64,000 nt of DNA from an uncultured bacterium (GCA_965368515.1 CBDUNF010000001.1:4265-68264), one strand, 5' to 3'; positions 17,263-33,831 are shown, counted from the stretch's first letter. Notes: a model not told the origin generated them from the sequence alone. Numbers and translations are program-made.

Positions 17263-17311
17263 GCTTCTTGCGTATCTGGTGTCCATATGTGGACGTGGTG
17301 TCCGCCAGAAC
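17263..17311. repeat. 49-bp repeat, copy A (37 nt identical to copy B at 33783-33831); contains hairpin GTCCA-TATG-TGGAC
   Basis: Direct comparison of the two intergenic sequences. Confidence 0.6.
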
Positions 17312-17331
17312 TGAGAAACCCGGGAGCTCGA

Positions 17332-17898
17332 CTACCCGGGCTCGTTGCCCGGCTTCCACTTGATGCCGCAGCCCATCGACGGGTATTGATCTGACGGCTG
17401 CGCAGAGTCGGCGAGCACGGCATCGACGGCGGCTCGCAGGTCGGCACCGGTGACCGGAACGCCGGAGTTGGGACGTGACTCGTCGAACCGTCCGCGGTAG
17501 ACGAGGCTGCGATCGGGACCGAACAGGAAGAAGTCCGGCGTGCATGCGGCGGTGTATGCCTTGGCGACATCCTGCGACGCGTCATAGAGAACGGGGAAGG
17601 TGTAGCCGACCTCTCTCGAAACGAGGCCGAGTTGCTCGGGGCCGTCGTCGGGGTACTGATCGGCGTTGTTGGAGCTAATGGCAATGATGTCGACGTCGCG
17701 GTCGGAATAGTCGCGCCCGAATTCGGCGAGGCCTGCCTGCACATGCTTTACGTATGGGCAGTGGTTGCAGATGAACATCACGACCAGCCCTTTGGCTGAC
17801 AGGTCCCCCAAGGCGACCCGGCCCCCACCCACTGTGTCGGGCAGATCGAAATCGGGGGCGGTAGTTCCCAGGGACAACATGGTGGACTCGACGGCCAT
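17332..17898 (-). CDS. thioredoxin family protein (CxxC; TlpA/peroxiredoxin-like)
   Basis: APDFDLPD...ICNHCPYV CxxC motif; thioredoxin-fold sequence. Confidence 0.75.
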   Translation of the reverse strand: MAVESTMLSLGTTAPDFDLPDTVGGGRVALGDLSAKGLVVMFICNHCPYVKHVQAGLAEFGRDYSDRDVDIIAISSNNADQYPDDGPEQLGLVSREVGYTFPVLYDASQDVAKAYTAACTPDFFLFGPDRSLVYRGRFDESRPNSGVPVTGADLRAAVDAVLADSAQPSDQYPSMGCGIKWKPGNEPG

Positions 17899-17975
17899 TT
17901 TGGGCTCCTCTTTGGTGCGTGTCTGCAGACTAGGTGCTGAGATGCCCTGGCTAGAACGCGCTGACCAGCAGACTC

Positions 17976-18506
17976 CTACTGAAGAATGGTGGTTGGGAAG
18001 CGGTAGACGTCAACGGGGGTCCGCGGTCCGATGCCGCCTTGCTGACGTGCCAGAGCGATCATCTCGTCAGCGGTGTCAGCGGTTCCGGGCAGCACCAAGC
18101 TGGATCGTCCGCCAGGCTTCTGGAGAAGAACCCCGTGTCTTGCCGGGTCGATCTCAGAAGGATCCTGCACCTCATCCGGTTCTCCGAGCAGATAGATGAC
18201 GATGTGCAACCGATCCACCCTGGTGTCCCTCAGTGCCTTGAGGCTCGGATCGGATATCGCCGCAAGGACGGCGGCATGTGCGATCTCGCTTCGCAAGTTC
18301 TGTCGGGTGGAGGTGACTGAGCCGATCCGCCCGCGCAGCCGTCCCTCGCGGTTGCTCCGGCGGGGCGGGTCGTACACGGCGACGAAGACGCCGGATGGAG
18401 GCGGGTCGTTCCTCTCTGCATCTAGCTCGAGGATTTGCCCGGTATCCAGGTAGTGATGGATGGCCTTCCGAGCCACCCCAATGTATGGGTGCGCACCTTC
18501 ATCCAC
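17976..18506 (-). CDS. AMMECR1 domain-containing protein (putative)
   Basis: GVFVAVYD...GRLRGRIGS and DPSLKAL blocks resembling AMMECR1 (LRGCIG, DPRFPPL); the Cys of the canonical motif is replaced. Confidence 0.5.
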   Translation of the reverse strand: MDEGAHPYIGVARKAIHHYLDTGQILELDAERNDPPPSGVFVAVYDPPRRSNREGRLRGRIGSVTSTRQNLRSEIAHAAVLAAISDPSLKALRDTRVDRLHIVIYLLGEPDEVQDPSEIDPARHGVLLQKPGGRSSLVLPGTADTADEMIALARQQGGIGPRTPVDVYRFPTTILQ

Positions 18507-18579
18507 GCCGCCACCATATTGCAGCGAGGAAGCGGTGTGAAGTGCCGGTCAGCCGGTACTGAGAGTCAGATGGCCATAG

Positions 18580-18960
18580 CTAGTCGGCGATGCCGAGCGC
18601 CGTGGCGACCTTGTCGAGGTCGCTGGCGCCGATAACGACCCGGTTGTCGAGAGCGACGTAGAAGATGAACAGCTTGGCGCCGGCGTCGGCGATCTTACGG
18701 GCCACTCGCCCAAACTCGCCGGGTCGGGGCACGACGTCGACCAGAAGTACCTTGCGGCGATCCATCGGGATGAAGCTCGCCGCCCGGAGCACCTCGTATG
18801 CATTGTCGGCGAGTTCGTCTTTGACAACGACGTGGACGATTCGCCCTTCGAGGCGCGGGAAGGTGCACGAGGCTTCCATCTGGATGCCGGCTTGGCCGAG
18901 CGTCTCCCACAGCTCGGCAACCGCCCGGTCCTCTCCAACCACAAATGTGAGATCTTCCAT
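18580..18960 (-). CDS. ACT-domain-like small protein (paralog of 25655-26038), cotranscribed downstream of iolB
   Basis: ~127 aa; beta-alpha-beta-beta-alpha-beta ACT-like pattern (VLLVDVVPRPGEFGRVARKIADAGAKLFIFYV...VVIGASDLDKV); clear paralogy to the second copy. Confidence 0.45.
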   Translation of the reverse strand: MEDLTFVVGEDRAVAELWETLGQAGIQMEASCTFPRLEGRIVHVVVKDELADNAYEVLRAASFIPMDRRKVLLVDVVPRPGEFGRVARKIADAGAKLFIFYVALDNRVVIGASDLDKVATALGIAD

Positions 18961-18971
18961 GCTTGCTCTCC

Positions 18972-19826
18972 TCAGTCGGCCGACGTCAACGGCAATCGGG
19001 GATCCGGACCGAGCGCTTGCAAAGATGCCATCGCCGGTTCCTGCCGGGGATCGTTGCAGATGCTCCACTTGCGCTCGGGCGATGGACCCGCCATCACGTT
19101 CAAGTAGTACATGTGGTGTCCGGGGAACGCCGCCGCCGGACCATGGAACCCTTTCGGGACTAGAAATGTATCGCCGTCGCGAACGGTTACGGTCTCACCG
19201 ATTTCGCCATCCATTGTGTAGCAGGTGAAGAACCCCGAGCCGTTGCTGCCGTCGATCCTGAAGTAGTAGATCTCTTCGAGTTCGACCTCGGTGTCGGACA
19301 TCTCGTCATGCTTGTGGGCCGGATACGACGACCACCCACCTTCCGGAGTGAGTACCTCGACGGCGATGAGCTTGTCCGCTTCCCATGATGCGGCGTTGAG
19401 GAAGTTGTTGATCTGCCGTGATGCGGTGCTCGCTCCACGCACCTCAACTGCCACGGCCTTCGCCGGCACAACATACGGGTCGATGCGGCGCGTCGCCTCG
19501 GCGCGACACAGAGCAATCTCGCCACCAGTTGTCGACGTGATCCGCATCTCCGTGTCGATTGGCACATACGCAAAGCCGCTGATGCCCGCAAAGACGTTGT
19601 CGCGCCCGTCGACGTCAAACCGTTTGCCCTCGACCTCGACCGTGCAGCTACCTGCAAGCGGGAGAACCGCAACCTCGGCAGACCCGGTGGCCACCGTTGT
19701 GCTGGCCCCTGCGGTCAGGTCGAGTACTGAGAGACCGCAGTAACTCCATCCGGCCAAGCCGGGATCGATGTCGACAAGCATGCCCCCGTCAGCCGTCGAA
19801 CCGGCCGGATGAAAGAGTTGTGCCAT
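18972..19826 (-). CDS. iolB: 5-deoxy-glucuronate isomerase
   Basis: IolB/KduI-like cupin signatures KHDEMSDTEVELEEIYYF and HHMYYLNVMAG; AAGGAG RBS 7 nt upstream of ATG at 19826. Confidence 0.85.
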   Translation of the reverse strand: MAQLFHPAGSTADGGMLVDIDPGLAGWSYCGLSVLDLTAGASTTVATGSAEVAVLPLAGSCTVEVEGKRFDVDGRDNVFAGISGFAYVPIDTEMRITSTTGGEIALCRAEATRRIDPYVVPAKAVAVEVRGASTASRQINNFLNAASWEADKLIAVEVLTPEGGWSSYPAHKHDEMSDTEVELEEIYYFRIDGSNGSGFFTCYTMDGEIGETVTVRDGDTFLVPKGFHGPAAAFPGHHMYYLNVMAGPSPERKWSICNDPRQEPAMASLQALGPDPRLPLTSAD

Positions 19827-19836
19827 CACCGTCTCC

Positions 19837-19850
19837 TTGGAACGTTCCAA
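19837..19850. promoter_or_regulatory. 14-bp palindromic operator TTGGAACGTTCCAA (copy 1), overlapping the iolB RBS
   Basis: Perfect palindrome with central AACGTT; identical sequence at four other promoter-proximal sites. Confidence 0.6.
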
Positions 19851-19937
19851 CATGTTGAACCTAATCGGCGGCGCTGGGTGCTGTCAACGCGGTCGAGGCG
19901 CTTGACATACTCGTACCCGGGTGTTTAGCGTGGCTTA

Positions 19938-19951
19938 TTGGAACGTTCCAG
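19938..19951. promoter_or_regulatory. operator copy 2 (TTGGAACGTTCCAG), ~50 nt upstream of iolG and just downstream of a TTGACA...TAGCGT promoter-like pair (19902-19931)
   Basis: 13/14 match to the palindrome; position relative to a candidate -35/-10. Confidence 0.5.
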
Positions 19952-20001
19952 ACAAATCTCGGCGGTCTGATTGATCTGCGGGGAGATGGAAGAGGTGACG
20001 G

Positions 20002-20991
20002 ATGCGGATCGGTCTTATCGGTGCAGGCCGGATCGGGCTCTTTCACGGGCAGACCCTGGCGGTTCATGAAGAGGTCAGCGGGATTCTGGTGAGCGATCCG
20101 CTGATCGAGCGGGCCAAGACATTGGCCGCCGACATCGGTGCCGAGGTAGCTCCCGATGCCGATGCGATGATCGGCGAGATCGACGCCATGGTGGTCGCCG
20201 CCGCGACGGACGTGCACGCTCCGATGATGCACCTAGCCGCCGACGCCGGGATCCCCGTCTTCTGTGAGAAGCCGATCGCCGTCGATCTCCCCACAACCGA
20301 TCTGGTTGTCGACCACATCCGGCAGGCGGGCATCCCCGCACAGATCGGATTCCAACGCCGGTTCGATGCGGGTTATCGCGCCGCCAAAGCCAGGGTCGAC
20401 GACGGCACACTCGGACACCTCTACTCGGTTCGCACCACAACTCACGATCACGAACCTCCCCCGCCCGGGTATGTCGACACAGGAATCTACGTCGATACCC
20501 AGATCCACGACTTTGACATCATCAGGTTCGTCACCGGCCAAGAGGCAGTCGAGGTCTATGCCGCCGGGTACACGACCACCGCGGACGCCTTTGGCCCCGA
20601 CCGCCCGATCGACACCGGCGTTGTCGTTCTCTCGTTGAGTGATGGAACCCAGGCTTTGATGTCGGGGATCCGCCACAATCCGGTCGGACACGATGTCCGC
20701 ATGGAGTTGTTTGGCGTCGAAGACAGCGTCAGCGTCGGGCTGCACCCGAGCCTCCCACTGCGTTCCGTCGAGCCGGGCGGTCTCGCCATCGTCGAACCGA
20801 CGCCGAAGTCCTTCCTGGATAGGTTCGCCCCGGCTTACAGAGCCGAGATCGAAGTGTTCCTAAACGTGGCTCAGGGACGGATCGAGAGCCCATGCACCCC
20901 CGAAGATGCCCGTGCGGCGCTGCGCATTGCGATTGCCTGCAATGTCTCACGCGCCGAGCACAGACCCGTTCGATTGGAGGAAGTGGCATGA
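20002..20991 (+). CDS. iolG: myo-inositol 2-dehydrogenase-like Gfo/Idh/MocA oxidoreductase
   Basis: MRIGLIGAGRIG Rossmann motif, EKP motif; divergent from iolB and followed by an iolE-like gene and an inositol-type ABC transporter. Confidence 0.75.
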   Translation: MRIGLIGAGRIGLFHGQTLAVHEEVSGILVSDPLIERAKTLAADIGAEVAPDADAMIGEIDAMVVAAATDVHAPMMHLAADAGIPVFCEKPIAVDLPTTDLVVDHIRQAGIPAQIGFQRRFDAGYRAAKARVDDGTLGHLYSVRTTTHDHEPPPPGYVDTGIYVDTQIHDFDIIRFVTGQEAVEVYAAGYTTTADAFGPDRPIDTGVVVLSLSDGTQALMSGIRHNPVGHDVRMELFGVEDSVSVGLHPSLPLRSVEPGGLAIVEPTPKSFLDRFAPAYRAEIEVFLNVAQGRIESPCTPEDARAALRIAIACNVSRAEHRPVRLEEVA

Positions 20992-21869
20992 CAGACATGA
21001 TGTCGCGGATAGCCGGGGCACCGATTACGTGGGGTGTGGACGGCTCCCCTGGTTGGGGCCACCTGATGGATCCCGATCGCGTCCTGGGTGAGATGGCCGC
21101 GCTGGGGTTGAAGGCGACGGAGTTGGGGCCCGATGGTTACCTGCCGATCGATCCGGCCGAACTCAAAGCGAAGCTCGATGGCTACGGCCTCGAGTTGGTT
21201 GGCGGGTTCGTGCCTGCGGTGCTTCACATTCCAGAGCGAGCTGAGGGTGACCTCGCCTATGCGGCCCGGGCGTCGAAGACGCTGGCCGGATGTGGTGCGA
21301 GCGTTCTGGTGCTTGGCCCCGGTTCCGGACTCGACGGTTACGACACATCGATTGACATGTCGGACACCGATTGGGGCATTTTCCTGGGTAACCTGAAACA
21401 TGTGATCGCTGCTGCGGCCGACGAGGGTTTGACAGTTGCCTTGCACCAACATTGGGGCATGGCCATTGAGACCCCGCAACACGTGGAGCGTTTGATTGCG
21501 CAGAGCGACGTCGAATTTTGTCTCGATACCGGGCACCTATACCTAGGAGGTGCCGATCCCGTTGCGATCGCCAAAGCCGCCGTCGGTCGGGTGGCCCATG
21601 TGCACCTCAAGGACGTTGACGAAGCGATGGCCAACCAGGTTCGACGCGGCGAACTGCCATTCCGCCAGTCAGTTATTGACGGCATTTTCAAGCCGCTTGG
21701 TGATGGCGCAGTCGACATCGCAGGCTTTGTCGGAACACTCGAAGAGGCCGGCTTTGACGGTTGGTATGTCCTCGAGCAGGACAAGGTTCTCGATGCAGAT
21801 CCGCTTCCAGGCGAGGGCCCGATACAAGACGCCCGAAAGAGCTTCTCGTATCTGGCGGGGTTGAGCTAG
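20988..21869 (+). CDS. sugar phosphate isomerase/epimerase (xylose isomerase-like TIM barrel); candidate inosose dehydratase IolE
   Basis: TIM-barrel AP-endonuclease-2 family pattern (HLKD, VLEQD); ATGA overlap with iolG. Confidence 0.65.
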
Positions 21870-21982
21870 TAACGGTTTGCCCTCACGAGCGTCGTGAGGG
21901 TGGAAGGGCCCACTCATGTGGGCGCCCGACTGCGTGGATTGATCCATATAGTCGGGGAGGAAATACGGAGGAGGAACAAGGG

Positions 21983-23005
21983 ATGAAAAGAAGTGTATGG
22001 CTGGTGTTGCTGCTGGCCTTCGCCCTGATCGTCGGAGCCTGCGGTGGCGACGATGACTCGACAACCACCGCTGCCGGTGACGACGCCACGGAGACGACCG
22101 CAGACGGCGGCGGCGACGCTGTGACCCAGCGCAGCTTGCGCATCGTTGTTGTCTCGCACGGTCAAGCGTCCGACCCGTTCTGGTCGGTAGCGGCCAACGG
22201 TGTCAGCGATGCTGGTGATGACATGGGAGTCACCGTTGAGTACCAGTCGCCGGGGACGTTCGACATGGTCGAGATGAGCCAGATCATCGATGCGGCCGTT
22301 GCGTCGCAGCCGGACGGTTTGGTTGTATCAATTCCCGATGCGGCGGCTCTTGGTGATTCGATTCGGGCCGCCGTTGCGGCTGGTATCCCGGTCATCTCGA
22401 TGAACTCGGGTAGCGACGCGTTTGCCGATCTTGGCGTGCTGGTCCATGTTGGCCAGACTGAGTACGAGGCCGGGCTCATTGCCGGTCAGCGCTTTGCCGC
22501 CGAGGGAGTTGGCAGCGCCATCTGCATCAACCAGGAAGTTGGTAACACCGCACTCGATGACCGCTGCCAAGGCTTCGAAGACGGTCTCGGCGTGGACGTC
22601 AACGTCATTCCTGTGGATCTCGCCGATCCGACGGGCACCCAGGAAACTGTTGCTGGTGCGTTGCAGGCGAATCCGGTTGAGGGAATCCTGACGCTGGGCC
22701 CGACCGGCGCTGCGCCGACCCTGGCCGCGCTGACCGAGAACGGCATGCTGGGAACTATCAAGTTCGCCACGTTCGACATGTCTCCTGACGTGCTGGCCTC
22801 GATTGTCGACGGCGACATGCTGTTCGCCATCGACCAGGCGCAGTACCTGCAGGGCTACCTGCCGATCGTGCTCCTGACGAAGTACGCCGAAACGGGCGCA
22901 CTGCCCTTGGGCAGCGTTGACCGTGTCATCCTGACCGGTCCGCAGATCGTCACCGCAGACGTGGCAGCAGACGTAATCGCCTACTCGGAGCAAGGCCTCC
23001 GCTAA
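21983..23005 (+). CDS. sugar ABC transporter substrate-binding lipoprotein (ribose/inositol-binding type I PBP)
   Basis: Lipoprotein signal [16 protein letters not shown]; periplasmic-binding-protein type I sequence; GGAGGAGGAACAAGGG RBS. Confidence 0.8.
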
Positions 23006-23074
23006 TCGAACGAACTGGCTGGGACCCGCTACGGCGGGTCCCAGCTCTATCCGCAAGAACGGAGGGAGGATTGC

Positions 23075-24151
23075 GTGACCACTGAAACGGCGCCGGCAAC
23101 AGCGCCGGCACCACCGAGCGACGAAAGAGTCAGGCAGGTTGGACTGCTCAGCCGGCTGCTGGCTCGTCCCGAGGTTGGGGCAATCGTTGGGACGGCCCTG
23201 ATTTGGGTGTTCTTTGCGATTGTCGCCTGGGACAACAACTTTGCAAGCTGGGTGACGACGGCCGCCATCTTCAATCGGGCGGCCCCGCTTGGCATTCTCG
23301 CCATCGCGGTCGCGCTGCTGATGATTGGTGGCGAGTTCGATCTGTCGATCGGCTCGATAGTGGGCTTCGCCGGCATGACGATAATGATCCTCGTCTTCCC
23401 CAGCGAAGGCGGAGGCTTTGGCTGGTCGCTGTGGCCGGCCATGCTCGTAGCGCTGGTCTTCGCCCTGACGATTGGGTTGTTCAATGGCTGGCTGGTGATG
23501 GCAACCAAGCTGCCATCGTTCATCATCACCCTGGGCACGCTATTCGTATTCCGCGGTTTGACCATCGCGGTGACACGTCTGTTGACCAACCGCACCCAGC
23601 TCGGTGGCGCTGACGAAGTGTCGGGCTTCGGCTTGGCCGACTCGATCTTCGCTGCGGAAATCGGTCTGTTCGGGGCGTCTTTCCGGATCTCCATCCTTTG
23701 GTGGATCGGCCTGACAGCTCTAGCTACCTGGATCCTCCTGCGCACCAAGCAAGGCAACTGGATCTTCGGTTCCGGCGGCGATGACAACGCCGCTCGCAAC
23801 CAGGGTGTTCCGGTCACCCGGACCAAGGTCGCACTCTTCATGACCACCGCGTTCGCCGGGTTCCTTGTGGCATTGATTCAGGTTGTGCAGTTCACCGGTG
23901 CTGACACCTTGCGAGGCCGGCAGCAGGAGTTCTTTGCGATCATTGCCGTGGTCATCGGGGGCACGCTGCTCACTGGTGGCTACGGGTCTGCGATCGGGGC
24001 GTTCTTTGGTGCGCTGATCTTTGCGATGGTGCAGCAAGGCATCATCATCACCGGTGTCGACGGTGACTGGTTCCAAGTCTTCGTCGGTGGCATTCTGATT
24101 ATCGCCGTGATCTTCAACAACTTCGTACGGCAGAAGGCGGCACAACGATGA
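23075..24151 (+). CDS. ABC transporter permease (RbsC/monosaccharide type)
   Basis: 10-TM branched-chain/ribose-type permease pattern; GTG start. Confidence 0.8.
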
Positions 24152-25017
24152 GTGGCAACGGCACCCCACTTCTGGAAATCAAGAACGTCTCCAAGTACTT
24201 CGGTAGCGTCATTGCGTTGCAGGATGTGTCGGCGTTTGTGCGTGCCGGTGAGGTCACCTGTCTCCTTGGCGACAACGGTGCCGGGAAGTCGACCCTGATC
24301 AAGGTTTTGGCCGGTGTCCACAAGCCGACCGAAGGCGAGTACTTCTTCGATGGTCAAGCGATGGATTTCAGCTCGCCGCGCGACGCTTTGGATCACGGCA
24401 TCGCCACCGTCTATCAGGACCTGGCCATGATCCCGCTAATGGCTGTGTGGCGGAACTTCTTCCTAGGGGCCGAGCCCACCAAGGGCTGGGGTCCCTGGCG
24501 GCGATTCGATGTGGATCGGGCCAAGGAGATCACTGTCACCGAGCTGGGCAAGATGGGGATCCAGATTCGGGATCCCGATCAGACGGTCGGAACGCTTTCG
24601 GGTGGTGAGCGCCAGTCGGTGGCTATCGCCCGTGCGGTCTACTTCGGCGCCAAGGTGCTGATTCTCGATGAGCCGACCGCGGCCCTCGGTGTCAAGCAGG
24701 CCGGTGTGGTCCTCAAGTACATCTTGCAGGCACGCAACCGGGGGATCGGTGTGATCTTCATTACCCACAACCCGCACCATGCGTACCCCGTTGCGGATCA
24801 CTTCGTGATCCTGCGTCGTGGAACCGTGTACGGCGACTACACGAAGGAAGAACTCCCGCTCGAGCAACTGGTCCAGATGATGGCCGGCGGCGCCGACCTC
24901 GAGGTGCTCCAGCATGAGCTGGAGGCAGCATCACGTGAAGGCGAAGAGGGGGCCGATACGCTCAAGGAGACTGCGGCGAGGATCGGCTCCGAGCTCGAGG
25001 AGCTTGGGGAAAGCTAA
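24148..25017 (+). CDS. sugar ABC transporter ATP-binding protein
   Basis: Walker [10 protein letters not shown], signature LSGGERQ, Walker [12 protein letters not shown]; ATGA overlap with the permease gene. Confidence 0.85.
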
Positions 25018-25051
25018 GAGTGATCGGGTCGTGGCTGAGTCTCGTGCTCCG

Positions 25052-25594
25052 TCACGATCCGAGTCCCCAGTCGCGGACGACTATCACCGCAGCGTCTGTG
25101 AGTTGGATCCCGGCGCGATGGCTACGTCGCTCTTCCACCAACTCAACTATCGCTTCGGCGTACTGCTCCGAGGGTGTGGTCTCCCACGTGTCTGCTTCGA
25201 ACCAATCAACGGAAGGCGAAAAACCCTGCGCTGCGAGAAACGCTGTGCGGAGATCCTCGTGCTCTGGGCAGGTGAATTCGACATGATGGGCAAACTCATG
25301 CAGCAGTTCGCTGCGCAGGGTTGCCGGGGTCCCCGGCACCCGAACCACGATTGTCTCCGTAGCCGGCCGGTATTCGCCACGATTATCGAGCTCCCACGCT
25401 GCCGCCAGGGTCGGAGACGGGATGCAATCACGACGACCCGGCACCGCGGCGAGAAAGTCGCTCCAGGCCTCGAGAGCCAGCTCGCGCAGGTCACCGGGGA
25501 CTGTGTCGTCAAAGTGGAGGTCGGCGGAACCACCGCCGCAACCGGTGAGGCCGACGAATGCGATCAAGGCTGTCGAGAAGAGGCGGCGGAGCAC
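25052..25594 (-). CDS. HExxH-motif lipoprotein (putative zinc metallopeptidase-like); start uncertain (GTG)
   Basis: Lipobox LIAFVGLTGCGGG after a positive N-region; LLHEFAHHVEF zincin-like motif; no canonical RBS. Confidence 0.4.
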   Translation of the reverse strand: MLRRLFSTALIAFVGLTGCGGGSADLHFDDTVPGDLRELALEAWSDFLAAVPGRRDCIPSPTLAAAWELDNRGEYRPATETIVVRVPGTPATLRSELLHEFAHHVEFTCPEHEDLRTAFLAAQGFSPSVDWFEADTWETTPSEQYAEAIVELVEERRSHRAGIQLTDAAVIVVRDWGLGS

Positions 25595-25654
25595 ATAATG
25601 ACAATAACCCGAGGCTCGGCGCACGCAGCCCGAGCGACCAAGTGAGGTGTTGCG

Positions 25655-26038
25655 ATGAATGACATCACGATCATGATTCCAGAGCGCGGTGGGGCAGTTC
25701 CCGAGGTGTGGGAGGCTCTCGGTGCTGCTGCCGTTTCTGTCGAGGCGGCGCTCTCGTTTTCCCGAGAACATCACCGCGTCGTCCATGTCGTTGTTGCTGA
25801 CGAAGCGGTGGCGCCCGCACGTGGCGCTCTCGAATCTGCCGGTTTCCTCATCGTGGATCAGCGTGAAGTCCTGCTGGTCGACCTGGCGGATCACCCCGGA
25901 GGCCTCGCTGAGGTAACCCGGGTCGCGTATGACTCGGGCGCCGGCGTCTACCTACTGTCGATGGCCACCGAGAACCGGGTGATGCTTGGCGTCGCCGACC
26001 TCGAAGCAGCACACCGCGCCTTTGGCAGGGCCAAATGA
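25655..26038 (+). CDS. ACT-domain-like small protein (paralog of 18580-18960), translationally coupled to the gluconolactonase gene
   Basis: 127 aa; alignable to the other copy along its full length; GAGGTG RBS. Confidence 0.45.
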   Translation: MNDITIMIPERGGAVPEVWEALGAAAVSVEAALSFSREHHRVVHVVVADEAVAPARGALESAGFLIVDQREVLLVDLADHPGGLAEVTRVAYDSGAGVYLLSMATENRVMLGVADLEAAHRAFGRAK

Positions 26039-26907
26039 AGGTCGAATGCGTCCTCCCCGCAAAAGCCGATCTGGGGGAGTGCCCGGTGTGGAGTCCGGCG
26101 GACGAACTCCTCTACTGGGTGGATATCGATGGTCGTGCGGTTCACGCCTTCGACCCATCTCTGGGCACCGATCGGAAGTGGCAGCTGGAGGTGCGTCCCG
26201 CAACCATCGCCAGAACCAACGATCCAAAGCGGTTGCTTGTTGCCGCAGAGAACGAGCTGGCGTGGCTGGCTCTGGATACCGGCGAGCTGACGTCGTGGGT
26301 GAGTCTCGAAGAGTCAAAGGAAGGCATCCGACTCAACGACGGACGTTGTGACCCGGCAGGCCGGCTGTGGATTGGCGGCATGTATGTGCCAACGTCGGCG
26401 ATGAGATTCGAAGCCTTCTTGCACCGGGTTGATCCCGATGGCAGCTTCGTCACGGTCCGTAGCGAGGTCGGTTGTGCCAACGGGTCGGCCTTCTCGCCGG
26501 ACGGATCGGTGATGTATTGGGCCGACACGCTGCACGGAATCGTGTGGGCATACGACTATGACATAGATACCGGGAATCAACACAACGAGCGTGTCTTCTT
26601 GGATTTCGCCCCGCTGCCCGGCAAGCCCGACGGAGCATGTGTGGATGAAACCGGCTGCTACTGGGTCGCGTGTGTCGGTGGTGGGGCGGTCGCCCGGATC
26701 ACGCCGCACGGTGATGTCGATCAGGTAATCGACGTTCCTGTGATTCGACCCACCATGCCTGCCTTCGGGGGTCCCACTCTGGACACGCTCTACATCACAA
26801 CCATTGGTGTCCGCGATCCGGCGCAGGACGGCCCCGGTGACCACGGTGGCATCTTCGCCTTCAACCCCGGGGTACGAGGGCTGCCTGAGCCGGTGTTCGG
26901 CGGGTAA
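26035..26907 (+). CDS. SMP-30/gluconolactonase/LRE family protein (sugar lactonase)
   Basis: Six-bladed propeller lactonase blocks (GECPVWS, NDGRCDPAGRLWIG, PDGACVDETGCYWVA). Confidence 0.8.
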   Translation: MKVECVLPAKADLGECPVWSPADELLYWVDIDGRAVHAFDPSLGTDRKWQLEVRPATIARTNDPKRLLVAAENELAWLALDTGELTSWVSLEESKEGIRLNDGRCDPAGRLWIGGMYVPTSAMRFEAFLHRVDPDGSFVTVRSEVGCANGSAFSPDGSVMYWADTLHGIVWAYDYDIDTGNQHNERVFLDFAPLPGKPDGACVDETGCYWVACVGGGAVARITPHGDVDQVIDVPVIRPTMPAFGGPTLDTLYITTIGVRDPAQDGPGDHGGIFAFNPGVRGLPEPVFGG

Positions 26908-27097
26908 GCCCCGATTCAGACCGGACGAAGCATCCATAGACAACCGAGACGATGGCTTCGAAGAGCTTGCGAGTTTGTTGTGTAGCTCTGGCCAGGCAGA
27001 GCACCGTTGCGGCGGGCGACCCATCGATTGCGAAGCTAGTGCCGATAGCCCGCGGCTCACTGATACGCTCGGGAACACGCAACCTGTAGGAGGGACA

Positions 27098-28027
27098 ATG
27101 GCGTCTTCACACCGAATTGTCAGCCGAGGCACGGTATTGACTCTGGTTCTGGGCCTGCTGCTCGGGGCCGCCATCACCTCTGCGTTGGCAGCGCCGCTCG
27201 ATGCGGGGAAAGCGCCGGGGCAGCGGGTGGTCGAACACCGCATCGACATCCCTGCAGGCGACCATGTGATTCCGGCGATCCTTGCGGTGCCGAGAAGGGG
27301 TGGCCCGAACGCTGAGTTTCCCGCGGTCCTAATGGTGCACGGCTTCGCCTCGCACAAGGACGAAGTCGGCGACATGTACAAACGAGAGGCGCGATATCTG
27401 GCCGGCGCCGGGTACGCCTCGCTGCGGATTGATTTTGCCGGGTCGGGCGAGAGCGCCCAGCCGTGGGTCGCCAACACCTACGACGGGATGGTCGCCGACA
27501 CTCGGATCGCGCTCGATTGGCTCGTTGACCACTCGGCGACCGACGACGATCGAATCGGGATTCTGGGGTTCAGCCTGGGTTCGCGGATCTCGGCAGCGGT
27601 AGCCGGAACGGACGACCGGATCGCCGCGTTTGCCAGCTGGTCTGGTTCGGTTGAGAACGGTCGCACCGGGTTCGATTTCTTCTTTGACACCTACTACGAG
27701 GAGGCCCAGGCCAACGGGTCGGTCGTCGTTGATCTTGGGTTCACGGTCATCGAGTTGAGTGCTGAGTGGTTCGAGAGCATGGATGCGTCTCACGCCCGCG
27801 ACGATGTCGGCGGCTACGTCGGCCCACTTCTCGCCATTGCGGGTACCGACGACTTGACCGTCGATCCGGTCGTATCGAGAGAGCTGATTCTGCATGCGGG
27901 GAGCCTCGACGCGACCCTGAGGATCCTCCCCGGAGCAGACCACATCTACCACGTGCTGACACCCGACCAGACTCTTGCCGAGGAGGTCATGCTGCTGACG
28001 GCACGCTGGTTCGCCGACAAGCTGTAA
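27098..28027 (+). CDS. secreted alpha/beta hydrolase (dienelactone hydrolase-like)
   Basis: Signal peptide; GFSLGS nucleophile elbow; AGGAGGGA RBS. Confidence 0.7.
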   Translation: MASSHRIVSRGTVLTLVLGLLLGAAITSALAAPLDAGKAPGQRVVEHRIDIPAGDHVIPAILAVPRRGGPNAEFPAVLMVHGFASHKDEVGDMYKREARYLAGAGYASLRIDFAGSGESAQPWVANTYDGMVADTRIALDWLVDHSATDDDRIGILGFSLGSRISAAVAGTDDRIAAFASWSGSVENGRTGFDFFFDTYYEEAQANGSVVVDLGFTVIELSAEWFESMDASHARDDVGGYVGPLLAIAGTDDLTVDPVVSRELILHAGSLDATLRILPGADHIYHVLTPDQTLAEEVMLLTARWFADKL

Positions 28028-28100
28028 GCGGGCCATGCCGCACGGTCCGTATCGCCTCTGTGCGTTGCGGGCCGTGCCTCATTCTGTCAGGACCAAACGA

Positions 28101-28114
28101 TTGGAACGTTCCAA
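28101..28114. promoter_or_regulatory. operator copy 3 (TTGGAACGTTCCAA), 20 nt upstream of the 28134 dehydrogenase gene
   Basis: Perfect 14-bp palindrome. Confidence 0.6.
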
Positions 28115-28133
28115 TCACCAGCGTTAGTATCGG

Positions 28134-29117
28134 GTGACATCGTCGGAGGGTGCGTTGGAAGTGTCGATGCCAGCAGTCTGGTTTGAGCGGGAGATCCTGC
28201 CGGATCTATATGCCGACGTGGTCACTCATGTCCAGGTGCTTGGGCCGGCCAGTGCTACCCCGGACGAGCCTTATCGTGGTCTTCCGACGGCTCTCGGCGT
28301 CGTCGCCTCCCAACACAACTACACAGCAGAGGTGATGGATCTCGCCCCCGGGCTGCTCGTTATCTCTCGCACCGGAATCGGTTACGAAAAGGTTGATGTT
28401 GACGCAGCCACCGCAAGGGGAATCGCTGTCTGCAACACCCCGGATGCTCCAACCGTCTCGACCGCCGAGCACGCCATCGCACTGCTGCTCATGGTCGCCA
28501 AGAACGTCAAACGCTCCGAGGCGGCTCTCCGAGGTGGCGGCTCGGACTTCTACGCCCGGCATGTCGGCATCGAATTGGAGGGGCTCACCCTGGGTCTCGT
28601 TGGATTCGGCAGGATCGCCCGGCAGGTCGCTGGTCTTGCCCATGGCTTTGGCATGCAAGTCTTGGCATTCGATCCGTTTCTGGATGATTCCGAGTTCGAA
28701 GGAGCGACTCGCTGCGACACAGCAGAGCAGTTGGCCGCCCAGGCGGATGCGCTCTCGTTGCATGTCCCACTCACCAGCGACAACGCTGGGCTCGTCGGTG
28801 GGGACTTCCTGCGGGTGATGAAGTCGGGGGCAATCCTCATCAATACCGCACGTGGGGGGCTGGTGGACCTTGCCGCGCTGGAAGCCGCACTCGAGTCCGG
28901 CCATCTCTTTGGTGTCGGACTCGACGTGACCGATCCGGAACCGCTACCGCCCGACCATCCCCTACTGCACAGGGACGATGTAGTGGTCACCCCCCACGTC
29001 GCCGCCGGTACTGCCGGGGCCAAGCGCAGGATCTTCAACACAGCCTTTACACAAGTCACGCAGGTTCTCAACGGAACACGACCCCAGCACCTCGTCAATC
29101 CCGAGGTGTGGAGTTGA
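28134..29117 (+). CDS. D-isomer-specific 2-hydroxyacid dehydrogenase; start uncertain (GTG 28134 / GTG 28161 / ATG 28167)
   Basis: NAD-binding GLVGFGRIAR, catalytic NTARGGLVD...GLDVTDPEP...TPHVAAGT. Confidence 0.75.
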   Translation: MTSSEGALEVSMPAVWFEREILPDLYADVVTHVQVLGPASATPDEPYRGLPTALGVVASQHNYTAEVMDLAPGLLVISRTGIGYEKVDVDAATARGIAVCNTPDAPTVSTAEHAIALLLMVAKNVKRSEAALRGGGSDFYARHVGIELEGLTLGLVGFGRIARQVAGLAHGFGMQVLAFDPFLDDSEFEGATRCDTAEQLAAQADALSLHVPLTSDNAGLVGGDFLRVMKSGAILINTARGGLVDLAALEAALESGHLFGVGLDVTDPEPLPPDHPLLHRDDVVVTPHVAAGTAGAKRRIFNTAFTQVTQVLNGTRPQHLVNPEVWS

Positions 29118-29148
29118 TGCTCCCAGCAGCGCATTGATAGGAGAAACA

Positions 29149-30324
29149 GTGAACAAGACCATCGGCATCGGTGTCGTCGGGTTTGGTTGGATGGGCCAGG
29201 CGCACAGCCGCGCCTACCGCAACATCCCCGTGTATTTCCCTGAGACCGGGCTGGAGCCCAAGCTGGTTGCCATTGCGGACAACGTGCCCGAGCGGGTCGA
29301 CCTGGCAGTCAACAACTTCGGCTTCGAGACCGGCACCGCCGATTGGCGCGAGCTCCTGGACCGTGATGACATCGACGTCATCGATTGCACAGCACCAACT
29401 GGCATGCATGAAGAGGTGGCCGTTGCGGCTGCTGCTGCCGGCAAACACGTCACCTGCGAGAAGCCGGTGGGCATCACACCGATGGCAACGGCCGCCATCG
29501 AAAAGGCGTCGCGAGATGCTGGTGTGATCACCGGGTGCGGCTACAACTATCGGTGGGCGCCGATGGTGCAGTACACCAAGCAGCTCATCGATGACGGTCG
29601 GTTCGGAGACCTGACTCACTACCGCGGCCGGTTCTTCTCCATGTATGGGCGGGATCGGCTCGGCCTTCTGTCGTGGCGGTTCAAGCAAGACGAGGCCGGG
29701 TTTGGGGCTCTCGCCGACATCATGTCCCACGCCGTCGACATGGCTCAGTACCTATGCGGACCGATCAAGAAGGTCGTCTCCGTCAAGGAGATCTTCGTCA
29801 AGGACCGCCCTCTGCCCACTCCGGGTTCGGGCACACACTATGACCGGGGCAAGCCCGATGACCCTACCGGCGTGGTCACCAACGAGGACTACGTCGGAGC
29901 TCTGGTTGAGTTCGAGAACGGAGTGCGAGGGACACTCGAGGCGGATCGCTCCATCTTTGGACCGCAGAGCCAGATGGCCTTTGAGATGAACGGTTCCAAG
30001 GGCGCCGCATACTGGGACCACGAGAAGCTCAATCAACTGTCGTTGTATCTCCCCGAGGAACAGCCAACCGACGGGTTTGTCGAGGTGCTGTCGGGCGATG
30101 CCTACAAGCACCACGGCAACTTCGTGCCGGGCGGCGGCAACTCGATTGGCTACGAGGACCTCAAGACGATCGAGGCCCTCGAGTTCATCACTGCGGTTGC
30201 CGAAGGCCGTCCCAACAAGCCCGACTTTGGTGACGCGTTGTCCGCTGCGTCGGTTGCGGCTGCGATGGTGCGGTCCTGGGAATCGGAGAAGTGGGAAGAC
30301 GTCGTCAGCCTTCGTATCGACTGA
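29149..30324 (+). CDS. Gfo/Idh/MocA family oxidoreductase
   Basis: IGIGVVGFGWMG N-terminal motif, CEKP motif; AGGAGAAACA RBS before GTG. Confidence 0.8.
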   Translation: MNKTIGIGVVGFGWMGQAHSRAYRNIPVYFPETGLEPKLVAIADNVPERVDLAVNNFGFETGTADWRELLDRDDIDVIDCTAPTGMHEEVAVAAAAAGKHVTCEKPVGITPMATAAIEKASRDAGVITGCGYNYRWAPMVQYTKQLIDDGRFGDLTHYRGRFFSMYGRDRLGLLSWRFKQDEAGFGALADIMSHAVDMAQYLCGPIKKVVSVKEIFVKDRPLPTPGSGTHYDRGKPDDPTGVVTNEDYVGALVEFENGVRGTLEADRSIFGPQSQMAFEMNGSKGAAYWDHEKLNQLSLYLPEEQPTDGFVEVLSGDAYKHHGNFVPGGGNSIGYEDLKTIEALEFITAVAEGRPNKPDFGDALSAASVAAAMVRSWESEKWEDVVSLRID

Positions 30325-30336
30325 CCCGGAGGACAA

Positions 30337-31098
30337 ATGCTGCTCGAGAACACAACCAAGCGCAAGCTCCGTGACGGCGGGACCGTCTATGGATGTTTCA
30401 TGCGCCAGGCCGAGGCGACCCTCGCCGAATTCATCGCGATGCAGGGCATGGACTTCATGATCTTCGACGGCGAACACGGGTCGCTCGAAGCCCGCGACAT
30501 CGAAGGGCTCAGCCGGGCCTGTGAGTTGCACGGCGTAACACCGATCGCCCGGGTCAGTAGCAACCAGCCGGCGGCGATATTGCGCTTTCTCGATGCCGGA
30601 GCCCATGGAGTCCAGATCCCCTGGGTGAATACCGCGGCCGAGGTCGAGCAGGCAGTGCAGTCGGCGAAGTACGGGCCTCGCGGGTTGCGCGGACTCGCCG
30701 GGAGCAGGCAAGGCGGATGGGGCCTCACCGAACCGCTGGGCGAATACACCCAGCGTGCCAATCGTGAAACGATGGTGGTTATCCACATCGAAACCGCCCA
30801 GGCCGCCGCGGCGGTCGAGGAGTACGTCGGCATCGACGATGTCGACGTCTTGTTCATCGGCCCCACCGATCTGTCCCATTCGCTTGGGCACCCCGGGAAC
30901 CCTGGTCATTCCGAAGTGGTCGAGGTCATGGATCGGGTCACCGAGGCCGTGGTGGCGTCCGACAAGACACTCGGCATCTTTGTTGGGACCCGGAAGGCGG
31001 CTGCAGATTGGCACGCCAAGGGTGCTCGCTACATCGCAACAGGTCTAGAAGGAATCATCAAGCAAGGAATCCAGGCATACCTACCTGGCGACCGGTAA
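30337..31098 (+). CDS. HpcH/HpaI family class II aldolase (2-keto-3-deoxy-acid aldolase-like)
   Basis: TIM-barrel PEP-utilising/HpcH pattern (MIFDGEHG...HIET...LFIGPTDLS). Confidence 0.8.
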   Translation: MLLENTTKRKLRDGGTVYGCFMRQAEATLAEFIAMQGMDFMIFDGEHGSLEARDIEGLSRACELHGVTPIARVSSNQPAAILRFLDAGAHGVQIPWVNTAAEVEQAVQSAKYGPRGLRGLAGSRQGGWGLTEPLGEYTQRANRETMVVIHIETAQAAAAVEEYVGIDDVDVLFIGPTDLSHSLGHPGNPGHSEVVEVMDRVTEAVVASDKTLGIFVGTRKAAADWHAKGARYIATGLEGIIKQGIQAYLPGDR

Positions 31099-31109
31099 AG
31101 GAGTCACCA

Positions 31110-32954
31110 ATGGAGACCATCCGACTGACAACTGCGCAGGCCATCGTCAAGTGGCTGCTCGCGCAGCGAACAATCGTTGCCGGTGAAGAAGTCGGCATCT
31201 TCGCCGGAGCCTTCGGCATCTTCGGTCACGGCAATGTCACATGTCTCGCCGAGGCGCTCCAGCCGGTCCAGGACGAGCTGCCGACCTGGCGCGGCCACAA
31301 CGAGCAGTCAATGGCTCTTGCCGCCGTCGCCTACGGCAAAGCTATGCGTGGCAAGCGCATCATGATCGCCACCTCCTCGATCGGCCCCGGCAGCACCAAC
31401 ATGGTTACCGCTGCTGCCGCTGCTCACGCCAATCGCATCCCCGTGCTGCTGTTCTCAGGCGACACATTTCAGCACCGCATCGTTGATCCGGTGCTCCAGC
31501 AGGTTGAGAACTTTGGGAACCCGACCATCACCGCAGCAGATACCTTCAAGCCGGTCACTCGGTATTGGGATCGGATCAGCCGTCCAGAGCAGGTGGTTCA
31601 GTCGCTCCCGCAGGCGCTGGCCGTCATGCTCGACCCCGCCACGCGCGGCCCGGCGTTCTTTGCGCTGCCGCAGGACATCCAAGCCGAGGCGTACGACTAT
31701 CCGGCCCGATTCTTCGAGCCCAAGGTGCATTTCGTTCGTCGTCCTGGGCCCGATCCGCGTGAGGTCGCCGCAGCTGCCGCGATGCTCACCAAGGCCGAAA
31801 AGCCGATGATCATCGCCGGTGGAGGGGTGCATTACTCCGACGCGGTTGCGGAGTTGACCGACTTCGCCGAACGGCGGGGCATTCCGGTCGTCGAGACGGT
31901 CGCCGGCAAGGCCACCATGGTCCACGACCATCCGAACTATGCGGGTCCTATCGGTGTGACGGGGTCGGCCGCTGCAAACTCTGTGGCCGAAGACGCAGAC
32001 GTCGTTGTTGCCATCGGCACCCGACTGCAGGATTTCACGACCGGATCATGGTCCGTGTTCAAGAACCCGAACACCCGCTTCATTGCCATCAACACTGCCG
32101 GTTGGGATGCACACAAGCAGATGTCGCAGCCGGTAGTCGCCGATGCAAAGGCAGCGCTCGCCGCACTGGACGCTGCGATCGGTGATTACAGGGCTGCGCC
32201 CGCCTGGCTGGCCTTTGCTCAGGACCGTATCGCCGAGTGGCACGACTATCTCGACTCCTGGAAGGGCCGGGAGCACGATGGGCCGCCGGCGTATGCCGAG
32301 GTCATCCAGGTAGTCAACGAGGTCTGCGACGACGACGACTACTGCCTCTCGGCGGCCGGTGGGCTGCCGGGTGAGCTAGTGATGGGTTGGAGGTCCAAGG
32401 CTGTCGGTTCGTTCGACTCCGAGTATGGCTACTCCACCATGGGATACGAGATCGCCGGTGCCTGGGGAGCGAAGATGGCTCGCGGTGACGGTGATGTCGT
32501 TTGCTGGGTTGGCGACGGCTCGTACTTGATGATGAACTCCGACATCTACTCAACGGTGATGACGGGTAAGAAGGTCATTTTCATGGTCTGTGACAACGGC
32601 GGGTTCGCCGTCATCAACCGGCTCCAGGTCAACACCGGTGGCGAGGAGTTCAACAACCTGTTGCGGACTGCACGGCACGAGCGCTATTTCCATGTCGACT
32701 TTGTCAAGCACATCGAAGCGATGGGTGCTCTAGCCGAGAAGGTAGACAACATCGAAGACCTGCCCGCGGCATATGCCCGGGCGAAGGCGGCAGACCGCAG
32801 CTACGCCATCGTTGTCGACATCGATGAGTACACATGGACCGAGGGTGGCGCCTGGTGGGAGGTTGGCATCCCCGAGGTCAGCGACCGTGAGCAGGTGCGA
32901 GTCGCCCGTGCGGAACTCGAGGCCGAGAAGAAGCACCAACGAGTCGGGATCTGA
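31110..32954 (+). CDS. iolD: 3D-(3,5/4)-trihydroxycyclohexane-1,2-dione acylhydrolase (decyclizing), TPP-dependent
   Basis: TPP enzyme with GDGS...NN ThDP-binding motif (VGDGSYLMMNSD...VCDNGGFAV); IolD-type length ~615 aa; AAAGGAG RBS. Confidence 0.8.
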   Translation: METIRLTTAQAIVKWLLAQRTIVAGEEVGIFAGAFGIFGHGNVTCLAEALQPVQDELPTWRGHNEQSMALAAVAYGKAMRGKRIMIATSSIGPGSTNMVTAAAAAHANRIPVLLFSGDTFQHRIVDPVLQQVENFGNPTITAADTFKPVTRYWDRISRPEQVVQSLPQALAVMLDPATRGPAFFALPQDIQAEAYDYPARFFEPKVHFVRRPGPDPREVAAAAAMLTKAEKPMIIAGGGVHYSDAVAELTDFAERRGIPVVETVAGKATMVHDHPNYAGPIGVTGSAAANSVAEDADVVVAIGTRLQDFTTGSWSVFKNPNTRFIAINTAGWDAHKQMSQPVVADAKAALAALDAAIGDYRAAPAWLAFAQDRIAEWHDYLDSWKGREHDGPPAYAEVIQVVNEVCDDDDYCLSAAGGLPGELVMGWRSKAVGSFDSEYGYSTMGYEIAGAWGAKMARGDGDVVCWVGDGSYLMMNSDIYSTVMTGKKVIFMVCDNGGFAVINRLQVNTGGEEFNNLLRTARHERYFHVDFVKHIEAMGALAEKVDNIEDLPAAYARAKAADRSYAIVVDIDEYTWTEGGAWWEVGIPEVSDREQVRVARAELEAEKKHQRVGI

Positions 32955-32956
32955 CG

Positions 32957-33754
32957 ATGGCCGACCTTGATGGCAAGGTTGCGCTGCTGACCGGAGCCGG
33001 GTCGCTGGTCGGCGGCGCCATCGGCCAGAAGCTGGTCGATGCGGGGGCCAGGGTGGTGATGGCCGGTCGCAATGAAGCGAACGGAGCCGAGGTGGTTGCG
33101 CCGCTTGGTGACTCCGGCGTGTTCGTGAGCACCGACATCACCAAGGATGAAGACCTCGATGCGCTGGTGGCGGTGGCCGTGGGTCGGTTTGGCGGAGTAG
33201 ACATTGTTGTCTCCGCTGCTGCCATCTTCGATTGCGGGATGCTGGAGACCACACGGGAGAATTGGTTGCGGTCGTTCGATACCAACGTGATCAGCGGTGC
33301 AATGCTGATCGAGAAAGCGGTACCCCACATGCGGGAGCGCGGGGGAGGGGCTGTCGTCATCGTCGGTTCGATCTCCGGCAAGCAGTCGCAGCCAAATCGG
33401 ATTGTGTATCCGACCACCAAGTCCGCCCTGCTCGGTTTGACCCGGAACATGTCCCAGGCGCTGGCGCCGGACAATGTCCGGGTCAACCACATCACCCTGG
33501 GGTGGACGTGGAGCCGCAACATCGAGCGCCGCTACGGCAGCCGGGAACGAGCGGACCTGTTTGCCGCGGAGTTCCAACCGATGGGCCGGATGGTGCACCC
33601 TGAAGAGTGCGGCGATGCAGTCGTCTTCCTGAGCTCGGATCGGGCATCGTTCATCACCGGCGCCGATCTTGCCGTCGACGGTGGCTACGACGCAATCGGC
33701 CCCGAAGCGATGGGTCAGCCGTTCGAGAAGGTCCCGGCGCTGCCGGACACATAG
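32957..33754 (+). CDS. SDR family oxidoreductase
   Basis: TGAGSLVGGAIG cofactor motif; YxxxK (YPTTKSAL). Confidence 0.85.
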   Translation: MADLDGKVALLTGAGSLVGGAIGQKLVDAGARVVMAGRNEANGAEVVAPLGDSGVFVSTDITKDEDLDALVAVAVGRFGGVDIVVSAAAIFDCGMLETTRENWLRSFDTNVISGAMLIEKAVPHMRERGGGAVVIVGSISGKQSQPNRIVYPTTKSALLGLTRNMSQALAPDNVRVNHITLGWTWSRNIERRYGSRERADLFAAEFQPMGRMVHPEECGDAVVFLSSDRASFITGADLAVDGGYDAIGPEAMGQPFEKVPALPDT

Positions 33755-33782
33755 AAGCGGCGCCACCCAGCCGGCCCCTTAC

Positions 33783-33831
33783 GCTTCTTGCGTATCTGGT
33801 GTCCATATGTGGACGTGGTCTACGCCAGAAC
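33783..33831. repeat. 49-bp repeat, copy B (matches 17263-17311)
   Basis: gcttcttgcgtatctggtgtccatatgtggacgtggt identical in both copies. Confidence 0.6.

Follow-up and report, generated by a model that had tools for sequence, protein, structure and literature searches.

The window analysed here, a 64,000-nt stretch of DNA from an uncultured bacterium (GCA_965368515.1 CBDUNF010000001.1:4265-68264), carries two nearly identical copies, A and B, of a 48-nt intergenic palindrome some 16.5 kb apart. A third copy, C, is found elsewhere in the genome of the same population, and two diverged copies, D and E, in two relatives. It is probable that all five are members of one dispersed palindromic repeat, restricted to a lineage of uncultured Acidimicrobiia and of the kind known as repetitive extragenic palindromes (REPs) or miniature inverted-repeat transposable elements (MITEs), and that the repeat acts as a single-stranded hairpin. 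The more general statement, that this is a dispersed hairpin repeat and neither a pair of attachment (att) sites nor an operator, can be made with considerable confidence. A dispersed repeat is preferred to an operator because the copies are near-identical within a genome, diverge between genomes while length, centre and loop are kept, occupy non-orthologous positions, are missing from orthologous sites of relatives, and have homology boundaries that match the palindrome ends. Among the small dispersed palindromic repeats it is a member not described before.

The repeat pair in the window

The 37-mer GCTTCTTGCGTATCTGGTGTCCATATGTGGACGTGGT occurs twice on the + strand, at 17263-17299 and 33783-33819, in exact agreement with the 37 consecutive identical nucleotides reported in the first-pass annotation of this DNA. 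No additional match was found in the window at up to 3 mismatches, and none of 100 dinucleotide shuffles yielded any 37-mer match. The 12 nt that follow (GTCCGCCAGAAC and CTACGCCAGAAC) differ at 2 positions, one fewer than had been counted before, and overall 47 of 49 positions are identical (95.9%). Similarity reaches another 7 nt to the left, weakly, the repeat family D2 being 56 nt long at 91% identity. Past this 56-nt repeat an alignment of the 310-nt surroundings of A and B shows no likeness, i.e., the flanks are unrelated. Searches with blastn-short, nhmmer and two covariance models (R1 and R2, filters off) returned only copies A and B in the window. The features are as follows.

17264..17311, + strand: copy A, 48-nt palindromic element CTTCTTGCGTATCTGGTGTCCATATGTGGACGTGGTGTCCGCCAGAAC (covariance models R1 77 bits, R2 67.9 bits)
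33784..33831, + strand: copy B, 48-nt palindromic element CTTCTTGCGTATCTGGTGTCCATATGTGGACGTGGTCTACGCCAGAAC (R1 83.6 bits, R2 70.4 bits)
17281..17294, + strand: hairpin tip GTCCA-TATG-TGGAC of copy A (from the sequence)
33801..33814, + strand: hairpin tip GTCCA-TATG-TGGAC of copy B (from the sequence)
17256..17263, + strand: C-rich left flank of copy A, CCCCGATG; a similar C-tract precedes B, C, and D (alignments)
33770..33845, + strand: extended hairpin of copy B, C-rich left GCCGGCCCCUUAC pairing with G-rich right GGUUAGGGGGUGGC (fold -39.7 kcal/mol)

Both copies are intergenic, as described earlier. By their Pfam neighbours, copy A lies between the start of a TauE gene (GTG 17241, minus strand) and the stop of an AhpC/redoxin gene (17332, minus strand), so that its + form is antisense to both, while copy B lies between the stop of an SDR gene (33754) and a DUF4332 gene on the + strand and is sense relative to both. 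The DUF4332 gene truly starts at ATG 33944; a 226-aa product of exactly this form has been recorded, and homologues begin there too. Copy B was found in all 8 listed contigs of the same population in the European Nucleotide Archive (ENA), and was checked with the model in two of them (L023, L027).

The palindrome counts 22 positions and spans exactly 48 nt. It is built from outer arms (GTTCTTGCGTA/TACGCAAGAAC, also given as TTCTTGCGTA/TACGCMAGAA), an inner stem and a CAUAU-bearing loop. The hairpin GTCCA-TATG-TGGAC that had drawn attention at first is present in both copies and turns out to be only the tip of this larger structure. A direct repeat of TGGTGTCC, noted at the same time, does exist in copy A; it has no counterpart in copies B and C and, being confined to one copy, is regarded as incidental. 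The 27 nt between the arms are identical among copies of one genome and different between genomes. In copies B, C, and D a 5' C-tract and a 3' G-tract lengthen the hairpin to about 75 nt; CCCC within 12 nt is met at 2.6% of random window positions and GGGGG within 14 nt at 0.7%.

On inspection the 48-mer has a stop codon in none of the six frames, and it is an annotation trap in that gene callers over-extend open reading frames (ORFs) through it. The DUF4332 gene appears as a 278-aa ORF from TTG 33788 (overrun at window 33788-33943), and 292- and 298-aa "IMPase" products (L008 182; L005 965) are likewise over-extensions, the orthologues being about 260 aa long. A small ORF in copy A, MLLAYLVSICGRGVRQN, was considered and rejected: its ATG is ACG in B and GGT in C, and there is no shared coding potential. 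Six-frame peptides of the element, used as a protein query for ORFs running into it, gave 36 word-sharing candidates and none at E <= 10.

A third copy in the same population

Copy C, GTTCTTGCGTATCTGGTGTCCATATGTGGACGTGGTGTACGCAAGAAC, has perfect 11-nt arms and is carried by the ENA SPAdes contigs L008 and L009, which come from the same ENA project as contigs 99.7-99.8% identical to the window. The order at its locus is the stop codon of a trpG/pabA-like amidotransferase gene, 11 nt, the element, 57 nt, and the TTG start of a gene for an inositol-monophosphatase-family protein (IMPase) of about 260 aa. Within one genome the copies are identical at 45-46 of 48 positions, and three copies (A, B, and C) are found in about 83 kb of the population's genome.

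An exact look-up of TauE led to a Logan contig (L005; SRR26386734, 1-1821) in which the element adjoins the IMPase-family gene. Reported in 3 samples, the contig matches A exactly on its left and C exactly on its right, the two meeting in the common 37-mer (junction at 915-963). This contig was considered as an alternative gene order or an "empty" arrangement, and rejected as such, as the SPAdes contigs show A and C as two separate loci. From its sequence, L005 most likely arose as a chimera of the k=31 assembly; it is conceivable that it is a real A x C recombinant, i.e., a duplication junction or an excised circle. Other Logan k=31 contigs begin inside the element (L007 at A, L031 and L032 at B), a behaviour to be expected when a repeat is longer than k.

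Diverged copies and empty sites in relatives

IMPase homologues place the host among uncultured Acidimicrobiia, and two relatives carry one copy each in 10-13 kb of their DNA, at intergenic sites that are not orthologous. Copy D, GTTCTTGCGTAACTGGCGGCACATATTGGCCGCCAGTTACGCATTCTC, lies after a 127-aa gene in the metagenome-assembled genome (MAG) MO_071.B23 (L012 2110-2157). It is 48 nt long and has the same centre of symmetry and the same first 11 nt as A-C, a TACGCA right arm and the CATAT loop, while its inner stem has a different sequence with 15 bp perfectly paired. Copy E (SWCD01023529, L011 1881-1928) again has 48 nt, the same centre of symmetry, similar ends and a loop with CAUAU, and was detected by a covariance model built from A-D alone (32 bits, E 2.6e-5). 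Copies of different genomes are identical at 23-31 of 48 positions. With filters off, the five-member model R2 was applied to the window, to about 15 kb beyond its two ends and to about 160 kb from relatives, about 240 kb in total, and found no additional member above 16 bits.

Orthologous sites without the element were found for both A and C. The trpG-IMPase spacer is 38 nt long and lacks the element in L010 (IMPase 86% identical), where the downstream TGGCACAATCGG motif is kept, and it is 110 nt long and unrelated in L011 (78% identity). The difference between the occupied (L009) and the empty (L010) site is 66-68 nt, without duplication. Similarly, the region upstream of TauE in L012 (TauE 87% identical) lacks the element and keeps a -10-like motif 6 nt before the start codon. 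The non-orthologous, diverged copies together with the empty A and C sites in relatives show spread or turnover within genomes and not the inheritance of a fixed regulatory site.

The -10-like hexamer is TAGGGT in the window (17239-17253, minus strand) and TAACGT in L012 (5983-6003), in both cases 6 nt upstream of the TauE start. As this leaves no room for a Shine-Dalgarno (SD) sequence after the hexamer, TauE is probably expressed from a leaderless mRNA.

Pairing and strand asymmetry

In the common register 79% of the cells of the stem pair, against 25-50% in slid registers, and 4 stem pairs are changed on both sides. Judged from the sequences of the five copies, the stem is maintained by compensatory changes. 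The wobble pairs are directional: on the + strand there are 3-4 G·U pairs in A-C and 3 in E, whereas A·C pairs number 0 in all five copies. By our own calculation, the two-sided probability that 7 of 7 wobbles point the same way is about 0.016, if transitions are equally frequent on either arm and A-C are counted once. Because compensatory stem changes occur together with a G·U bias on one strand, the data show in part that selection favours a single-stranded hairpin with a polarity, formed by RNA or by single-stranded DNA. Folding energies differ between copies. Copy A, with 2 pairing-breaking changes in its right arm, folds at -13.8 kcal/mol on the + strand and -12.8 on the - strand, compared with -24.7 and -21.0 for copy C and -22.9 and -14.6 for copy E. 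A 49-nt variant with the perfect arms of copy C (the L005 form) has a z of -5.6 (+) and -6.7 (-) relative to shuffles, and in the extended form z is -4.5 for copy C and -6.4 for copy D. The earlier claim of a functional module is plausible, and it is upheld in that the element is discrete, non-coding and hairpin-forming, beyond chance expectation (0/100 shuffles).

A possible role at transcript ends

Four of the five copies (A-D) begin 11-29 nt past the stop codon of a co-directional gene, the strand with the G·U pairs is the transcribed strand for B, C, and D, and in A and C the element is closely followed by the conserved -10-like motif of the next gene. From these three observations we infer that the mRNA of the upstream gene carries the element at its tail. 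Lying between genes, it would be transcribed at the end of the upstream message in three of the five copies, and its long stem-loop would then form a transcript-end hairpin. Such a hairpin might bring about termination or insulation independent of a U-tract, form a barrier to 3' exonucleases, or be a processing site, and the same strand-specific hairpin may be recognised by a putative spreading enzyme. That the main effect in the cell is that of a transcript-end RNA hairpin is put forward tentatively, as a possibility somewhat short of even. Of the roles proposed in the first-pass annotation (a small RNA, a riboregulator or a terminator module), a transcript-end or terminator module is the most plausible one, while a 5'-UTR (untranslated region) riboregulator is unlikely for A and C, where the -10-like motifs lie downstream of the element.

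Several observations weigh against a repeat that acts as a hairpin at transcript ends. The covariation comes from three independent lineages only, and 8 of 500 shuffles attain the observed score. All 4 substitutions among A-C fall in the right arm, which is not what pure hairpin selection predicts, and copy A, antisense to its neighbours, is no more stable than its shuffles (z -0.6 to -1.1). Behind the hairpin there is no U-tract (tails TGAGAAAC, GGTTAGGG, GAGGAGGG, and GGAGGGGG), and a simple terminator scan was negative. Copy E is not 3' of a stop codon; because it sits in the divergent spacer between a tRNA-Ala gene and a thiolase gene, a transcript-end role does not apply to every copy. 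Five members in about 400 kb examined, of which about 83 kb are of this genome, do not establish the high copy number (tens to hundreds per genome) that is a hallmark of REPs, and no target-site duplication, GTAG/CGTC tag or transposase was found in the DNA examined. Finally, the 20-mer core had 0 matches in 185,579 species-representative genomes and the 21-mer core 0 in JGI metagenomes. As these core searches were empty and a 91-nt stretch around copy A had no blastn match among plasmids and phages, the element is not a widespread known repeat, a plasmid sequence or a phage attP.

Alternative explanations

It was originally suggested that the two copies are attachment or recombination remnants bounding an acquired 16.5-kb segment. 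A and B do have the same orientation, as direct repeats, and enclose a block of coherent function, which encodes IolB, Gfo/Idh/MocA oxidoreductases, a sugar-phosphate isomerase-like protein, an ABC sugar transporter, a gluconolactonase, a hydrolase, a 2-hydroxyacid dehydrogenase, an HpcH aldolase, an IolD-like ThDP enzyme and the SDR. Farther relatives (DUF4332 69% and 61% identical) carry a different gene upstream of DUF4332, and the link of A-left to C-right in L005 makes recombination between copies conceivable. The suggestion does not survive a closer look at the interval and its relatives, and attL/attR-like sites or recombination remnants at the ends of an acquired inositol/ABC-transporter island are now hardly credible. 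The GC content is flat, at 0.61-0.63 across the interval and outside it; by Pfam the interval holds metabolic and ABC-transport genes only, with no integrase or transposase, and the window contains no tRNA gene. In L012 (MO_071.B23) the genes for IolB, the 127-aa protein, AMMECR1, and AhpC stay with TauE although the copy A element is missing there, and copy A is therefore not an island border. Inositol genes also lie outside the interval, at 45-51 kb (PfkB/IolC-like, DeoC/LacD aldolase, Gfo/Idh, and a LacI regulator), and share with it the operator-like palindrome TTGGAACGTTCCAA, which recurs at 45-50 kb. Copy C and the related copies are at unrelated loci. A loss of the block in relatives, as looked for among the contigs, would appear as joined flanks, and no such deletion variant is present among the TauE contigs (8 read, 7 of them listed; L005 joins copy C) or the DUF4332 contigs (12 read, 10 of them listed); instead L012 has genes from inside the block beside TauE, every TauE contig that reaches past copy A retains the arrangement of the window (L001-L004 and L006), and the order SDR-B-DUF4332 is retained in 8 of 8 listed ENA contigs of the population.

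The transcription-factor site that had also been proposed, i.e., an operator of a dimeric or tetrameric factor co-regulating TauE, DUF4332, and the IMPase-family gene, is highly unlikely. A palindrome is found upstream of a gene start in 5 of 5 cases, 21 to about 112 nt away, copy A abuts the -10-like TAGGGT of TauE, and IMPase and the iol genes have inositol as a common theme. The half-sites are atypical, however, being 37 nt apart centre to centre, and the 27-nt spacer is the same within a genome and different between genomes. The positions are not orthologous and the orthologous promoters of relatives lack the element, the downstream genes are functionally incoherent (TauE, DUF4332, IMPase, radical SAM, and thiolase), and an asymmetry of G·U only is unexpected for a site in double-stranded DNA. 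The operator-like motif of the window is a different palindrome, of 14 nt, with 5 sites. A stable, strand-specific hairpin with a conserved loop, sense to the downstream gene in 4 of 5 copies, would suit a cis-regulatory RNA or a small RNA (a 5'-UTR riboregulator, a thermometer or a small RNA gene) acting on that gene. The 3'-flank of copy D even holds GGAGG, 14 nt before an ATG, that pairs with the C-tract, and sequestration of the SD sequence by the C-tract/G-tract stem is geometrically plausible for copy D only. This explanation is nonetheless rather improbable. The window has 0 gathering-level matches in Rfam 15, the best sub-threshold matches being generic miRNA-precursor hairpins (<=22 bits against cut-offs of 76-107), and no promoter lies upstream of the element. 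In A and C -10-like motifs (TAGGGT/TAACGT, and TGGCACAAT in common with L010) lie downstream of the element, which places it outside the 5' UTR. Moreover, copy A is antisense, and the genes downstream of B and C start after another 57-112 nt, each with a ribosome-binding site of its own. Consensus scans gave 0 canonical promoters or terminators at both window copies, and a promoter inside the element was rejected, a TANNNT -10 being absent on both strands by eye and the scan likewise finding none. A neutral relic is unlikely as well, though it deserves more credit than the preceding explanations; on this view a hairpin, e.g., an old terminator, would have been locally duplicated or gene-converted a few times by chance, and its copies would now have neither function nor mobility. 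It would fit that just three copies are present in about 83 kb, all apparently in one oriC-proximal neighbourhood, that copy A is degenerating, and that no mobilising gene was found. It would not explain why homology stops precisely at the palindrome ends in three independent contexts, why the family has lasted in three genomes at exactly the same length, its centre and loop preserved and its stem co-varying, or why the substitutions have a strand-specific G·U bias. The lineage-restricted, dispersed hairpin repeat accommodates these three features and is preferred.

Comparison with known repeat systems

By its behaviour the closest system is that of REPs and REPINs (paired REP hairpins). As in that system, the element is a short imperfect intergenic palindrome (5 of 5 members here; 79% of cells paired), near-identical within a genome and diverged between related genomes, at non-orthologous sites and without target-site duplication. 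The hairpin is strand-specific and often just past stop codons, able to stabilise or end transcripts. It differs in its length, 48 nt (about 75 nt with flanks) compared with 20-40 nt, and in its ends, which are GTTC...GAAC. A REP palindrome has a conserved GTAG or CGTC tetranucleotide at one end (PMC3733652); neither is seen here, where the ends are (G/C)TTCTTGCG...CGCMAGAAC and the left flanks GATG, TACG, CCCG, CCCC, and AGCG. The REP-associated tyrosine transposase (RAYT) is encoded by a single-copy Y1 HUH transposase gene flanked by REP repeats, and among the window genes scanned or pre-annotated there was no Pfam match to a transposase family. Actinobacteria are not mentioned in the REP/RAYT literature consulted (PMC5581495, PMC3733652).

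The closest actinobacterial analogue, by description, is the Tuberculosis Rho-independent terminator (TRIT), a motif with 147 copies in M. tuberculosis that is restricted to Mycobacterium and for which a factor recognising a double-stranded RNA motif was suggested (the RNIE paper, PMC3152330). Both are actinobacterial, lineage-restricted, sequence-conserved palindromic hairpins near gene termini, without the logic of a canonical U-tract, and both are largely bidirectional through palindromy. TRITs are centred at about -8 from the stop codon, inside the gene, whereas the copies described here lie +11 to +29 past the stop (4 copies) or not after a gene (one copy), and 3 copies per genome sample are known here. 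The terminator activity of TRITs is itself debated, as mycobacterial RNA polymerase was reported to need a U-tract (PMC3993855). With an ordinary intrinsic terminator the element shares a GC-containing stem-loop shortly past a stop codon in 4 of 5 copies. Unlike one, it has no U-tract and is undetected by the consensus scan, and ordinary terminators do not show sequence identity between unrelated loci.

MITE-like features are the terminal inverted repeats (GTTCTTGCGTA/TACGCAAGAAC, 11 nt, perfect in copy C), the discrete boundaries, the presence/absence polymorphism among relatives and the intergenic location. The element is far shorter than the typical 100-400 nt or so, no direct repeat flanks A, B, or C despite 94-96% identity between them, and the material examined yielded no parent insertion sequence (IS) whose ends match. 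The subterminal hairpins of IS200/IS605 and palindrome-associated transposable elements (PATEs) offer another parallel, as they function through a strand-specific single-stranded DNA hairpin that tolerates G·T and insert without duplication. The orientation of the copies would agree with this, on an argument drawn from 2-3 of them: A, B, and probably C share one strand, which is G-rich and presumably the leading-sequence strand. In contrast to these elements there is no tnpA/tnpB nearby and no conserved 4-5-nt target at the left end (flanks GATG, TTACG, CCCG, and CCCC).

Genomic setting

The 14-nt perfect palindrome with a central CG, which resembles a LacI-family operator, occurs 5 times in the window compared with 0.11 expected.

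19837-19850, 19938-19951, 28101-28114, 45428-45441, and 50191-50204: sites of TTGGAACGTTCCAA in the window

These include the divergent iolB / Gfo-Idh region and positions just upstream of the gene at 28134 and of the LacI-family gene at about 50236. The set looks like a real operator set of an inositol/sugar regulon, which would link clusters on both sides of copy B.

Relatives differ from the window in gene content near the elements. AMMECR1 stands alone in the window (17976-18506), while L012 (2177-4663) has radical-SAM and 221-aa genes in front of it, an AmmeMemoRadiSam-like set, and L012 has DoxX between AhpC and TauE. The window lineage has lost, or never possessed, the DoxX, radical-SAM, and 221-aa genes, and the elements are exactly at these junctions: DoxX is missing at A, and where L012 has D the window lacks the radical-SAM and 221-aa genes. 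Repeat-associated rearrangement at gene-content junctions would fit this pattern in what is a very small sample.

The right end of the window (57-62.4 kb) carries rpsF-ssb-rpsR-rplI-dnaB, PadR and inositol-1-phosphate synthase genes lie to its left (L037), and copy C adjoins trpG and a pknB-pbpA-rodA-PP2C cluster. We take this neighbourhood to resemble the oriC-proximal region of Mycobacterium, as on the M. tuberculosis map, and copies A, B, and C may all belong to a single stretch near the origin, on one and the same G-rich strand. The centre of A-C (17281-17294 and 33801-33814) contains two inverted 9-mers, each of which matches the actinobacterial DnaA-box consensus, TTGTCCACA, at 7 of 9 positions; the bases are not kept in D and E, and the likeness is probably a coincidence. 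In one sample (L025 1175-3811; ENA ERZ25043458) a single 878-aa product is called where the other samples have two genes, for the IolD-like ThDP enzyme (614 aa) and the following SDR (265 aa). A variant stop codon or a frameshift at window position ~32954 would account for the fusion, as would an error of assembly there.

Implications

It is tempting to speculate, although the odds are low, that this is the first REP-like system of strand-specific hairpin repeats described in Actinomycetota (class Acidimicrobiia). The repeat would either be moved via single-stranded DNA by an unrecognised enzyme, of the HUH/Y1 type or other, or serve as a sequence-specific, factor-dependent signal at transcript ends, analogous to TRIT, with the CAUAU loop and the GTTCTTGCG/CGCAAGAAC stem base as recognition determinants. 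For the annotation of the window, the consequence is that the inositol/ABC block is not a mobile island. If confirmed genome-wide, the element would extend hairpin repeats of the REP or TRIT type to an abundant uncultured class of actinobacteria. It would also provide a marker for strain typing and for assembly breaks and chimeras in MAGs of Acidimicrobiia, as k=31 assemblies break or mis-join there, and it offers a test case for how transcripts are ended or insulated in high-GC bacteria without U-tract terminators.

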